From assembly GCF_006345805.1 (NCBI RefSeq), contig NC_043018.1, positions 18,600,001 to 18,664,000 on the forward strand: a stretch of DNA of 64,000 nt, in the 5' to 3' direction. The stretch comes from Octopus sinensis (taxonomy: Eukaryota). Below the pieces are notes generated by a model. It was given only the letters and a program-made list of their open reading frames with translations, did no database searches and was not told the origin of the DNA. Both the position numbers and the translations under genes were made by a program. This document shows, in pieces, positions 502-63,544 of this stretch (within the stretch, counting starts at the first letter, position 1; every line of letters starts with the position of its first letter).

Positions 502-639
502 CTATGCTACAGAACCTGACCTACTTTTACCTGTGCCACCCTGCATGTTCTCATCAACCTGTTGCTTTCAAACAATAAATATATTGATTCACAATTAGAA
601 GAGTGCAATAAATAATATGACAGAAACATATTTTGTTTA

Positions 640-960
640 ATACAGTTCTATATTTAAGAGATGAGGAATTAGGTACATTGTTTACATTTGATGGATATTT
701 GTCCTCATCTTGTTTGTTGTTAACACGTTTTGTCTGATATACCCTCCAAACTTCTTCAGGTGTCTTGGGGAAATTTCAAACCTGGGTTCTCATTCTTGAG
801 GTATCTTTCGATGTTGTTGTTATTATTATTATTATTATTATTCAGGTCACTTCCTGGAATCGAACTCGGAATCTTGGGGTTAGTAGCCTGAGCCCTTAAC
901 CACTATGCCATATGCCCACAGGCATATGGCATAGTAGTTAAGAGCCAAGATTCTGAATTA
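640..960 (-). mobile_element. Family H element (tRNA-like head plus degenerate hammerhead tail), duplicated copy
   Basis: Near reverse complement of 2383-2725. The hammerhead is degenerate (CTGAAGA...AAAA). Confidence 0.8.
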
Positions 961-1139
961 ATAACTAGTCAAGTGTTAACTAGTACCTCTGGTCATAAGC
1001 AAAACCGCAGTGGAGCTTTCTAAAACAGTGTTTCTAAAACTATTCACTTTAGAAGAAAACCCTGTTCATGGTGCAACACCCATGAGTCAGTTCAATCCCT
1101 CAAATTCTGAAAGCAATATGATTCATTTAGGTGAGATTT

Positions 1140-1660
1140 ATAATGATTCCAGTTTGGTAAACGCAACAGAATGCACCAAATGCAATTTGATCTATGTTGG
1201 CTACACAACAAACAAATTAAACAGGAGATTTAACACTTTAGTGTTCACATTATTCTGCCAAAATTAATGCTTCTTCATCCACATTGCCTTGAACTAATCA
1301 GGCATTATCTTGTAGCTTTGAGATTTTGATGAGGTAGCTGTTAATTTTTCAAATAATATTGTAGGGTTGGTGTGAGAGACCTGATCTGGCCATTTTGAAC
1401 ATAAAACAGGTAGAATACTTTTGGCCGGATATGGCCGGTTTAAATGCTAAAGGGTTAATGGACATATGTGTTGTGTCATGCATAATAAAGCTACAAGATG
1501 GAACTTGCTGAACATTTTTAGAAAACTTGAGGAACACCTGACAGTATGATTTCTTAGAAAATAATCCAATTCCACTGAACTTTCCATTCTCAGAACACAA
1601 GGAATGGTGTATCTGTGCATTGCAAGTGTCATACCTTGGAGGGATGATCAAATAACAGGA
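1140..1660 (+). pseudogene. Decayed Penelope-like GIY-YIG endonuclease domain, split by a MITE
   Basis: SSLVNATECTKCNLIYVGYTTNKLNRRFN; removing the TTAA-flanked MITE gives RRFNGH. ELAEHF and EWCICALQVSYLGGMI follow in shifted frames. This matches the Penelope EN pattern C..C...YVG.T...L..RF..H / A.HF / E..WI..L....P.G.N. Confidence 0.75.
1230..1458 (-). mobile_element. piggyBac-like MITE family P1
   Basis: TTAA at both ends; termini acactttag and ctaaagggt; reverse complement of 1708-1934 and 59589-59817. Confidence 0.85.
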
Positions 1661-1707
1661 GGGTTCCATCAGATTATTACCAAACTTTTTGACAAAGTTT
1701 TATCTCC

Positions 1708-1934
1708 TTAACCCTTTAGTATTTAAACCGGCCATATCCGGCCAAAATAGCTAATCTGTTTTATGTTCAAACTGACCAGATCCAGGCCCTCACACCTACC
1801 CTACAATGTTATTCTACATTAGGTAATTACACCATCAAGATCTTGAAGATATGAGATAATGCATGATTAATTCAAATCAATGGGAATCAATAAGCATTAT
1901 GTTTGATGGAATAATCTGAACACTAAAGGGTTAA
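1708..1934 (+). mobile_element. piggyBac-like MITE family P1
   Basis: ttaaCCCTTTAG...CTAAAGGGttaa terminal inverted repeats with TTAA duplication. Confidence 0.9.
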
Positions 1935-2154
1935 TAATCTTTTTCTTGTTTTCTTCTGTTTTAACCTGTTACAAACAAACAAAACTTGATGCTTTTGTTT
2001 TTGGTCTAGGAAGGAATGCAGGATATTCCAGTTGAAATTATGAATCCTTGTATATCAATGCAGTTATCATTTTTCATTATTCTTTCTTATTTGGAATCTG
2101 AGGGAAACAGGCAGACTTTTGAAATATCGTCTTGTTCAATAAACAAAATTTGTT

Positions 2155-60587: not shown

Positions 60588-60918
60588 GTAGATAGATAGA
60601 TAGATAGATAGATAGATAGATAGATAGATATAGATAGATAGATAGACAGATAGATAGATAGATATATAGATAGATAGGTAGATAGATAGATAGGTAGATA
60701 GATGGACAGATGGATAGATAGATAGATAGATAGATAGATAGATAGATAGATTGATAGATGGACAGATGGATAGATAGATAGATAGATATATAGATAGATA
60801 GATAGATAGATAGATAGATAGATAGATAGATGATAGATAGATAGATAGATAGATAGATAGATAGATAGATAGATAGATAGATAGATAGATACATAGATAG
60901 ATAGATAGATAGATAGAT
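60588..60918. repeat. (GATA)n microsatellite
   Basis: Read directly; accounts for the YLSI-repeat ORFs. Confidence 0.95.
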
Positions 60919-61385
60919 GTGTATATGTAGGCATTCATAAGTAAGAAATCAGCTGCTGTAGAAATGAGCTACTTAGTGAATGTTAGCACACATACACACA
61001 TGGATGTACACACACACTCTCACACACACACATACACACACTTAAACTGTATAATTTATGTCCAATGACCGCATGTTTAAAAGCAGTGGATTGGCAAAAC
61101 CATTATAGCACCAAATAGATTATGTTGCAGTATTTGTTCCAATTCTCTCAGCACTAAGTTCAAATCTCACCCAGGATCTCACTTGGGGCAGCGGCCTTTT
61201 ATTTAAAATGGCGGTGCCCCAGCATGGCCACAGCTCATGAGCTGAAACTAGAATCAATCAATCAATCATTAACTTTCATCCTTTCAGGGTCAATAAAAAA
61301 AAAAGGGAGAAGAAAAACCACCAACCACAGCAGGAGGGTGGATGGTCAGAACTGTCAGAATATCACACAGGATGTCTTGCAGTAT

Positions 61386-62262
61386 TATAACAAAGAATTT
61401 GGTAAAATAACTTAGTTATCATTCAGCCAGTGTTAGGAACATAAATTGTGACTAAGGTTTGGTGGAAGATTTTAAGTCAAAACTTTTGAAACAAGACATT
61501 AGTGGTTTCAGCTGAGTTTGTATTGAAAGGGGTAAATTAAGCATTTGTTAACCCTTTGGTTGCCATATTTCTGTTGAGACGCTCTGTGTTTCTTTCAATT
61601 ATTTCAAATATAACAAAGAATTTAGTAAAATAATTTAGTTATCAATAAGCTCGTGTTAGGAACATAAATTGTGACTAAGGTTTGGTGGAAGATTTTAATT
61701 CAAAACTTATGAAAACAAGACATTTGTACTTCAGAGCCAGAGCCAGTTTCAGCCAGGTGGGTATCAAAAGGGTTAAGAATTGTTTCTCTATTATATATTT
61801 TAACCATTTTGTTACCATATTGCTGTTGAGATGCTCTGTGTTTCTTTCATTTAATTTTAAAAAATATAACAAAGAATTTAGTAAAATAACTTGGTTATCA
61901 TTCAGCTGGCGTTAGGAATATAAATTGTGACTAAGGTTTGGTGGAAGATTTTAATTCAAAACTTTTCAAAACAAGACATTAGTACTACAGAACCAGAGGT
62001 GGTTTCGGCTGGGTTTGTATTGAAAGGGATAAATTAAGCCTTTGGTTGCCATATTTCTGTTGAGACGCTCTGTGTTTCTTTCAATTATTTCAAATATAAC
62101 AAAGAATTTAGTAAAATAATTTAGTTATCATTAAGCTCGTGTCAGGAACATAAATTGTTACTAAGGTTTGGTGGAAGATTTTAATTCAAAACTTATGAAA
62201 ACAAGACATTTGTACTATAGAGTCAGAGGTGGTTTCAGGAGGGTTGATATCGAAAGGACTAA
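61386..62262 (+). mobile_element. Four tandem piggyBac-like MITE P2 copies
   Basis: Best copy 61548-61775 reads ttaaCCCTTT...AAAGGGttaa; ctaaggtttggtggaagatttt occurs four times. Confidence 0.85.
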
Positions 62263-63015
62263 AAGAGTTTGCACAGACTCTGTAGTTTTTGCATGGGGTA
62301 AAGCATCTCTAATGCTTATTTTTCCTTTCATATTCTCCATATATTTCATGAAAAGTATGAAATATTTACATATGAAATATATAAATATATAAACAGATAG
62401 ATAAATATTTGAAATGTGAGATATTACTTTTTCTTTTATGGCACAGCAATGTATCGCATTTTCCTATTTTTTAAAAATAAAATTGATTCATTCTGATGTG
62501 ACAACAACCATCACCTCTAATATTCAATTCTGTTGACTTTTATATCTCGATAGCTAGCTGCAAGTAATGTGGAATAAAATATCAATTTTAAAGCAATACT
62601 CACCAGCAATATCTCATATCTCGGATGATATCTTTGATGCAGTCAGTTAAGATTGATACATTCTCGAATTTCATTCCACGGCTGAAAAGGGTAAGATTTT
62701 TTTTTTTTAAATACAGAATATTATCAAAAGTTAACATCTGTGTGTGAATGTATGTGTATGCCAGTGTGTTTGTGTGTGTGAATTTATATACATTTGCAGA
62801 GACTCATATATGTAATTTAGAGAGATATAATCGTTGATTAAATGATATTATCTATGTGATTGGAAAACAAAATCTCCCTCTAAATGTGTTTAAAATCAAA
62901 AAGCAAAAATAACAAAGGAGGCAATTATAAAATTATTAGATAATACAATTTTTGTTTTGAAAATGCAAACAATGGTGTTAGGAGTCAATGCTGCTTTGAA
63001 AGTCAACTGGTGAAA

Positions 63016-63058
63016 GCAACAGACATGTTTCAGTCTTGTTAGATCTCAACAGTGAAGC
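63016..63058 (-). ncRNA. Degenerate minimal hammerhead remnant
   Basis: GCUUCA CUGUUGA GAUCU-AACA-AGACU GAAA CAUG UC UGUUGC; A6 is mutated and stems are imperfect. Confidence 0.4.
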
Positions 63059-63300
63059 ATATTCACATTGAGAGTATATTTCTACTCTGACTCAAGGCAT
63101 CTGATGAGTGAGTTGTTGAATCAAGTCTATAAAACTTCAAGTAATGAGAGGGTGGATCAACTTGTTAATAAATACATATACAAGCAGAAATATATATATA
63201 TATATATATATATATATATATATATATATATATATAGTAGTAGTAGTAACAGAAAAGAGGAATTTCGGTTGTCCCCACATGGTGGATTGTAATGTATATA

Positions 63301-63544
63301 AGAAAAATAAAAATGGAAAATATGCACACTTACATGGTTATAGTATAATTTTTAATGTATCGACCGTTTCGCAATCGCTATTCATGATACGTTTAATTTA
63401 TATGAAAATATATTTTTTCATATAAATATATTTTTTCATATAAATTAAACATTGTATCATGAATAGCGATTGCGAAACCGGTCGATACATTAAAAATTAT
63501 ACTATAACCATGTAAGTGTGCGTATTTTCCGTTTTTATTTTTCT
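63301..63544. repeat. Near-perfect palindrome (~115-bp arms) between (TA)n tracts
   Basis: agaaaaataaaaatggaaaatatgcacacttacatgg... / ...ccatgtaagtgtgcgtattttccgtttttatttttct. Confidence 0.95.
63453..63489 (+). ncRNA. Minimal type I hammerhead motif with compensatory A3-U8 core (mirror copy 63356-63390 on the minus strand)
   Basis: UGUAUC AUGAAUA GC-GAUU-GC GAAA CCGG UC GAUACA: 6-bp stem I, palindromic ACCGGU stem III and GUC cleavage triplet. Confidence 0.75.

Follow-up and report, generated by a model that had tools for sequence, protein, structure and literature searches.

Hammerhead-bearing repeats in an Octopus sinensis window as probable truncated ends of coding Penelope-type elements, one family with a tRNA-derived head

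Introduction

Penelope-like elements (PLEs) of metazoans carry hammerhead ribozymes in their pseudo-long terminal repeats (pLTRs). According to the accessible parts of Cervera and de la Pena (2014; PMC4209133), these hammerheads are of type I with a missing or palindromic helix III, a bulge may follow A9, a U3-A8 variant exists, most copies are solitary and truncated, and pairs on opposite strands lie 100–700 bp apart. Here, we describe five families of hammerhead-bearing repeats in a stretch of Octopus sinensis DNA (contig NC_043018.1, positions 18600001-18664000; the entire 64,000 nt are called the window). The genome has 2.7 Gb and is rich in microsatellites. The families are named by window position as A (575, 2155, 46462), B (35691), C (56695), D (63016) and E (63240). 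They resemble the published motifs in all of these traits, with the bulge in A and B and the U3-A8 variant in a further family, H. The differences are the G3-C8 and A3-U8 family cores and the tRNA-derived head found here, which do not appear in the accessible parts of that paper, and a helix II of 2–3 bp in C and E compared with 7–8 bp in its schistosome motifs.

U3-A8, U4C and a 2-bp helix II were already present in PMC3088659, as far as its accessible text goes. Natural G3-C8 and A3-U8 family cores were not met in the literature covered. These cores may already be listed by Lunse et al. (2016), who reportedly described numerous PLE hammerhead variants that cleave as dimers, and families A–E may already be catalogued.

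In PAc, a Poseidon element of Anolis carolinensis (Frangieh et al. 2024, PMC11167929, accessible sections), the hammerhead overlaps the start of the open reading frame (ORF), as in family A. Its layout, with a tail between two fixed ends and no reads ending at the cut, is also like that of family A. A C3G/G8C exchange was engineered there and gave partial rescue, whereas the same pair is the natural family core of B. A tRNA-derived head and the avoidance of T runs, both found in family A, are not reported in those sections.

The Neptune and Hydra clades (Craig et al. 2021, accessible parts of PMC8557442) have linker zinc fingers like the CX2-5CxxC of B, E and H and the CxCx5C of C; (TA)n targeting, an inverted 5'-truncated copy and a tail are further likenesses. 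Among the matches listed from its supplement (2 of 4), the only octopus families are Naiad, and the clade calls made here are by motifs.

Schistosome hammerhead short interspersed nuclear elements (SINEs; PMC6765202) and the Helenus and Cassandra TRIMp3 elements (PMC10886601) are described, in the accessible text, with a small-RNA-derived promoter in the terminal repeat or before the hammerhead, as in family A. They are short and non-coding, whereas the head of family A belongs to a 2.6-kb coding element with a TTTT-free ORF. Metazoan non-LTR retrozymes (accessible parts of PMC7229834 and bioRxiv 10.64898/2026.07.22.740005) carry type I hammerheads related to PLE terminal repeats, as here. Retrozymes form head-to-tail non-coding arrays, whereas the repeats here are head-to-head and collinear with ORFs. 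A non-LTR retrozyme was rejected as an explanation because the pairs are head-to-head, not head-to-tail, and coding parents exist.

Hammerhead-bearing repeats in the window

A preliminary description of the window had proposed five elements that share one hammerhead topology. The topology and the coordinates were upheld by family alignments and by strict descriptors, which matched the window far more often than shuffles. The arms of the five families are as follows.

638..959, minus strand: family A arm, a putative Poseidon-type pLTR; tRNA-like head at ~855-945, (AAT)n, core 759-753, tail with its end at 638; 3 nt are missing at the cut site.
2156..2430, minus strand: family A inverted arm, tail-less; core 2247-2241; 3-nt deletion at the cut site.
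2420..2727, plus strand: family A tailed arm; A box 2433-2443 and B box 2478-2487 in a tRNA-derived head, then (AAT)n, core 2605-2611 and a tail that reaches ~2727.
35605..35810, minus strand: family B arm, 3' end of a putative Neptune-type element; core starts at 35791; G3-C8 in the family, G8 in this copy.
35820..35920, plus strand: family B inverted arm, degenerate.
46461..46622, minus strand: family A inverted arm; core from 46547, the one A hammerhead that is intact in the window.
47168..47287, plus strand: partner arm of 46461; head remnants, then tail; a nested SINE lies between the two arms.
56695..56856, minus strand: family C tailed arm of the U4C subfamily, 3' end of a putative Hydra-type element; located in (TA)n, with the core from 56835.
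56846..56931, plus strand: family C inverted arm, tail-less; core from 56860.
62958..63068, minus strand: family D, old single copy; A6U in this copy, family core canonical.
63240..63415, minus strand: family E tailed arm, 3' end of a putative Neptune-type element; A3-U8 core from 63385, in (TA)n.
63428..63552, plus strand: family E inverted arm; core from 63459, A3-U8 hammerhead intact.

A descriptor of type I hammerheads that required a palindromic helix III and Watson-Crick pairing of positions 3 and 8 gave three matches in the window and none in each of 30 local dinucleotide shuffles. When a bulge after A9 was allowed, the window gave four matches, and 25 shuffles gave a mean of 0.04 (a maximum of 1). 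Relaxed descriptors pick up B, yet they also match shuffles (means of 1.5 and 2.9), and the hammerheads of B and D therefore rest on family alignments. The helix III sequences were as initially proposed: ACGU (A), AAUAUU (B), ACUCAGAGU (C), ACAUGU (D) and ACCGGU (E). An Rfam 15 scan of the window gave no hammerhead among the matches listed (150 of 379).

The window copies are decayed, and most arms are damaged. In three of the four A arms, 3 nt are missing at the cut site; elsewhere, the left B arm has G8 and the right one is degenerate, D has A6U and the left E arm lacks one C.

A genome search gave 2965 (A), 3231 (B), 872 (C), 104 (D) and 1172 (E) first-look candidates. The exact family A pattern had 8421 genome matches, and a separate recount of the family gave 6731. 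Copy numbers estimated from background loci were ~16,000 for A, ~14,000 for B and ~38,000 for C, with 0 matches for D and E; these estimates are rough and biased by the choice of loci. Two further hammerhead families appeared in the flanks of loci (L107:772, L048:891 and L107:1088), one with a CYGACGA core and an ACGU helix III, the other with CUGAAGA and an 11-nt palindromic helix III.

The repeats continue into coding elements

The repeats of the window are very probably the truncated, partly mirror-imaged 3' ends of several protein-coding Penelope-type elements. For A, B, C and E, this follows from other copies, in which the same sequence extends upstream into an ORF with reverse transcriptase (RT) and GIY-YIG domains. 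In all four families, the repeat stands on the same strand after a single ORF with an RT and, at its C terminus, a GIY-YIG endonuclease (EN). The description as non-autonomous mini-elements is thus not upheld, while mobilisation by Penelope enzymes was rightly proposed. Autonomous RT–EN elements with the same termini exist for A, B, C and E; for D, a Hydra-like remnant lies upstream in 1 of 25 loci.

The evidence is most extensive for family A. Head and hammerhead follow a Poseidon-type RT–EN ORF in 14 of 19 RT-selected loci (four of them one duplicated insertion), and among 40 further loci, the head comes after the ORF in 26 of the 30 copies that reach the ORF end. The repeat and the tail continue into the ORF start in L283 and L286, which places the hammerhead in the first codons of the ORF. 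The protein has a DKG motif, CCHH in the EN and no linker zinc finger, which would make it Penelope/Poseidon type by motifs rather than by a tree.

Family E continues into an RT and a GIY-YIG domain (PF01541, E=4e-6) with a CX4CxxC linker, and one copy (L279) is full length with a 5' inverted repeat. For family B, RT and EN were found upstream in L105/L281. Both families share a CX2-5CxxC linker ahead of a GIY-YIG domain with CCHH and are probably of Neptune type, again by motifs and not by a tree.

For family C, a search with upstream extension led to EN or RT pieces in 11 of 30 loci. The ORFs of L276, L277 and L270 contain DKT, RWK, a CxCx5C linker, and CxxC and CxH around E/N. Together with the (TA)n target, these motifs suggest a Hydra type without recourse to a tree; the signature motifs of this clade are set out in section 11 of PMC8557442. 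An interpretation of C as a fixed-end mini-element, drawn from the 30 top matches, was abandoned since copies selected by tail and by upstream sequence run into the Hydra-type ORF. Family D is old (~80% identity) and is probably also the end of a coding PLE, with a Hydra-like remnant upstream (tblastn E=1e-14).

Three points weigh against this reading. The D parent comes from 1 of 25 loci and could be a mere neighbour, the B parent likewise comes from 1 of 25 loci, and the loci examined contained no C copy of the U4C subfamily with an ORF.

Two related elements were observed in the loci. Family H (L193, L202, L205-L208, L215 and L284) is a young Neptune-type family with open ORFs of 780 aa and a U3-A8 hammerhead 700–1100 nt after the start of the EN match. 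In L216, another Hydra-like EN ORF adjoins a family C insertion in a shared (TA)n.

Coding Penelope elements with such ends are an expected product, and this observation adds mostly annotation; family A matters more.

Hammerhead cores

The majority sequences of the families have G5, A6 and A9, GAAA, UH, a 3-8 pair and three helices, as in type I hammerheads. The elements are Penelope-type minimal type I hammerheads with a palindromic helix III, as had been suggested. The family majority core is CUGAUGA (C3-G8) in A and D, GUGAACA (G3-C8) in B (22 of 33 motif matches), AUGAAUA (A3-U8) in E (34 of 38) and UUGAUAA (U3-A8) in H. The short subfamily of C found in the window has mainly CCGACGA (C3-G8 with U4C), and ORF-linked C arms have canonical CUGANGA in 18 of 18 cases.

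The motif tallies bear out the divergent cores (C3-G8, A3-U8, U4C) at the family level, including the G3-C8 core that had been guessed for B. Three of the five families escape a plain CUGANGA search, again as predicted, and descriptors limited to this core undercount hammerheads. A single genome contains family cores with each of the four Watson-Crick 3-8 pairs. The exchange of this pair among families (C-G, U-A, A-U, G-C) points to selection on the fold in active masters, and the four versions are a natural covariation series suited to cleavage assays. RNA-seq reads of a related organism showed no read-end peak at the hammerhead cut site, which such libraries would hardly reveal.

Several details of the helices were noted. 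Helix II of family E (63466-63473, plus strand) comprises 8 nt that are fully self-complementary with two G-U pairs. It has no stable hairpin, a self-duplex is predicted at -9.2 kcal/mol, and by this prediction the helix might pair between molecules. Engineered dimeric minizymes reportedly pair in this way. In family C (L001-L030, L216-L275), the helix II loop is GGAA or GCAA depending on the subfamily; a GNRA tetraloop is kept on a stem of 2–3 bp. In family B (L086-L110), 10 of 33 arms have a 2-nt insertion 1–3 nt past the cut, which is probably a subfamily variant of helix I.

Insertion footprint

PLE insertions are 5'-truncated, have a tail at one end and often include an inverted copy that is likewise 5'-truncated (accessible parts of PMC8557442 and PMC3846280). 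The families described here show the same 5' truncation, inverted 5' copy and tail on one arm. Inverted pairs lie at 2156-2697, 35691-35920, 56764-56931 and 63293-63552; D is unpaired. Inverted arms of family C stop at +72 in 29 of 42 cases, and full arms stop at +139. Exactly one arm is tailed in 25 of the 33 family A pairs. C and E sit in (TA)n and target it; two elements had been placed in such runs.

The four head-to-head pairs had been called dimers. Their arrangement was correctly recognised, and the term does not apply to the ribozymes: the arms are on opposite strands and therefore cannot form a double hammerhead. The pairs are the known inverted-pLTR insertion footprint of Penelope. 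The purified PAc protein nicks both strands, and its reverse transcription starts at two internal sites that bound the tail; it uses uncut RNA, and an active ribozyme is not needed (accessible sections of PMC11167929). The +72 and +139 ends of C and the one-tailed pairs of A agree with this and with the accessible parts of PMC8557442 and PMC3846280.

The proposal that the elements are processed by their ribozymes was not confirmed. Copies run across the uncut site, where 5' ends show no accumulation: in an unbiased sample, 5 of 89 arms start at +3 to +16, a density like that upstream. Truncation at the cut site had been hinted at by RT-selected copies, in which 8 of 35 ends (6 loci) lay at +3 to +13, and was rejected as it is absent in these 89 arms.

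The footprint and published Penelope work suggest an insertion by twin priming. The element protein would nick both target strands, and reverse transcription would begin at two close internal sites on uncut RNA. The two cDNAs would stop early and be joined head to head. The ribozyme would be carried along in the repeat and be dispensable for insertion, with cutting expected only as a dimer of same-strand copies or with the help of a protein.

As a side observation, ~57 nt past the family A tail (581-637, 2727-2784) were duplicated and inverted together with the element, such that 581-959 mirrors 2384-2784.

A tRNA-derived head and missing terminators in family A

Family A has an A box and a B box 45 nt apart in a segment ~25 nt past the ORF stop, and they are kept at tRNA spacing in both subfamilies. 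Compared with tRNAs of the same genome, all eight heads outscored the best of 300 shuffles, mostly with Arg(TCT) as the best tRNA. A hidden Markov model of the genome's tRNAs matches the window at 855-911 and 2433-2487. In a set of 126 pattern-selected arms from 89 loci, 43 of the 5' starts fall within the 40 nt at the head and 10 lie inside the ORF.

On the sense strand of one near-full copy (2634 nt), three or more T in a row occur 25 times (24.8 expected), and a run of four T (TTTT) is absent (5.7 expected). In 1.9–2.8 kb, four other families have 17 (E), 9 (H), 14 (C) and 5 (B) TTTT runs. Across family A copies, 19 loci with 29.3 kb contain 8 such runs and 40 loci with 53.5 kb contain 22, none of them common to more than five copies. 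Metagenome relatives with 38–49% identity have two to six each (8 of 8; 34 in 7661 nt in total). With the codon usage of the other families, a single-copy codon null gave P=0.006.

Four T are the terminator of RNA polymerase III (Pol III). On the simplest reading of the depletion, the whole family A element was hence selected for Pol III read-through. We tentatively consider that this coding element is transcribed by Pol III over its full length, a possibility that falls a little short of probable. In the fuller version, which we hold with the same reserve, family A may be an autonomous coding PLE into which a tRNA-derived internal promoter was swapped and from whose 2.3-kb ORF Pol III terminators were purged. 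One uncapped transcript would serve as message and as template for the long and the thousands of short copies, and the hammerhead at the ORF start would possibly aid cap-independent translation. Pol III would conceivably start at the head of the upstream repeat and read the hammerhead, the tail and the TTTT-free ORF, a step that we regard as plausible rather than likely. Priming at the first tail would then give many short copies from head to tail, and priming at the last tail would give long copies.

Several observations weigh against this model. Neither ARAGORN nor Rfam calls the head a tRNA, and the tRNA comparison sampled only seven isotypes. The accumulation of 5' ends at the head could stem from a hairpin there, by analogy with other PLEs in which palindromes mark inverted junctions (accessible parts of PMC3846280), and a second accumulation (42 of 126) lies at the (AAT)n run. 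Among 40 long copies, none had an intact 5' head running into the ORF. RNA-seq reads of a related organism on A and C were strand-symmetric, with depth rising towards the multicopy end and with neither a start peak nor an end peak at the cut site; this is consistent with passive read-through and uninformative on Pol III RNAs. According to the accessible text of PMC10886601, autonomous retrotransposons or partners must use RNA polymerase II (Pol II). An uncapped RNA would also require an unusual translation route. Self-cleavage can induce cap-independent translation (PMC13725137, accessible text) and is, by analogy, a possible route for family A RNA, although the first in-frame ATG here is located 5' of the cut.

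The strongest alternative sees family A as an ordinary Pol II element and its head as a passive capture from a tRNA-derived SINE, with the lack of TTTT due to chance or another constraint. We rate this as a serious candidate, somewhat short of probable. With family A's own codon usage, the codon null gives P=0.06, a further point against the Pol III model. All copies share one ancestor, and the loss of TTTT therefore counts as one effective trial; in addition, the RNA-seq of the related organism gave no transcript support for Pol III. However, the depletion sets in abruptly at four T: T3 counts are normal, and runs of A, C and G are close to the expected numbers. Outside family A, each of the 27 ORFs with 250 aa or more in the loci has at least 1.3 TTTT per kb, compared with 0 in seven of the eight A entries. 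The conserved spacing of the A and B boxes in both subfamilies also speaks against passive capture.

If the Pol III model is true, Pol III makes a 2.7-kb coding RNA, which breaks the rule that autonomous retrotransposons need Pol II. SINE-like copies would be explained without a separate SINE, and family A would be a concrete system for the function of PLE hammerheads. In the literature searched, of which most items were judged from listings alone, no Pol III-driven or tRNA-headed coding PLE was described. Apart from the tRNA-headed, terminator-free coding PLE, the findings are known Penelope biology with new family members and a series of core variants.

Separate non-coding masters

Some short copies might descend from non-coding masters of their own that borrow Penelope proteins, namely a tRNA-headed SINE in A and a U4C derivative in C. 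We consider this unlikely. Short A copies do carry the tRNA-like head with A and B boxes, hence a complete predicted Pol III promoter, with a cluster of 5' ends at the head. Similarly, the 5' ends of C cluster 16–21 nt ahead of the core (the query reached only -21), and the C4 core occurs in 0 of 18 ORF-linked C arms. Non-autonomous PLE derivatives have been described (MRC1 in PMC8557442; bioRxiv 10.64898/2026.07.22.740005; accessible parts of both).

However, the head belongs to the coding element of family A, and no separate SINE is therefore needed. As it also follows the ORF in the 26 of 30 copies given above, it is not exclusive to the short copies and does not mark an independent non-coding master. 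Both A subfamilies (U7 and A7) are present among ORF-linked copies, a C4-type arm in L216 extends at least 170 nt upstream, and the loci examined contained no head-to-tail array of these families. Separate non-coding masters are possible only for the short A copies and for the U4C subfamily of C.

Deletions at the cut site of family A

A deletion of 2, 3 or 5 nt touches the scissile bond in 19 of the 126 A arms, compared with 4 at the adjacent (AAC)2. Such deletions were also found in 14 of 84 arms of a partly overlapping sample chosen 3' of the site and in 17 of the first 100 rows of A pattern matches. The most common one removes exactly the GUU triplet through a 2-nt microhomology.

These deletions could be scars of an RT that jumped across self-cleaved RNA, an explanation that we regard as improbable. 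The three counts and the exact loss of the triplet would fit it. So would the recurrence in both subfamilies, the rare sharing within pairs and the lack of a rise with age (9, 5 and 5 deletions by tercile, P=0.17). In 33 inverted pairs, the subfamily marker agrees in 29, while the same deletion is shared in one pair, seven are discordant and one has two different deletions. However, the cut is free of indels in B (0 of 33), C (0 of 71) and E (0 of 39), and the unbiased sample of family A shows no build-up of 5' ends at its cut. RT or DNA polymerase could slip on the GT-rich micro-repeat that makes up this site, and because of these two negative results, slippage is more likely than a jump.

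The weakest explanation is that the motifs are chance matches inside inverted repeats like those of miniature inverted-repeat transposable elements; relaxed descriptors do match shuffles and single copies fold weakly, but the excess of strict matches over shuffles, the position of the motifs on the coding strand downstream of PLE ORFs and the covariation of the 3-8 pair among families make it extremely improbable, and the RT–GIY-YIG ORFs upstream of the family repeats rule it out.

Other features of the window

1140..1700, plus strand: decayed GIY-YIG remnant, split by a 240-nt repeat at 1227-1466; not the parent of A–E.

The remnant had been reported at 1140-1660 as a partner of the hammerhead elements. 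It exists, with a weak PF01541 match below the cut-off (E=0.009), and the partnership was not supported: tblastn of 1140-1700 against the proteins of the five families' parents gave no match. It was therefore rejected as the source of families A–E. The 240-nt repeat that splits it has three copies in the window (1227-1466, 1701-1934 and 59587-59820), in which a descriptor scan detected no hammerhead.

A 221-nt unit is repeated in 7.6 tandem copies with 96% identity at 25895-27580, without a descriptor match. An imperfect palindrome of 215 nt (74%) at 57141-57355 is likewise without a hammerhead core. At 19389-19481 (plus strand), a 5S rRNA-like match of 48.6 bits exceeds the Rfam gathering score; it is possibly a pseudogene or the head of a 5S-derived SINE.

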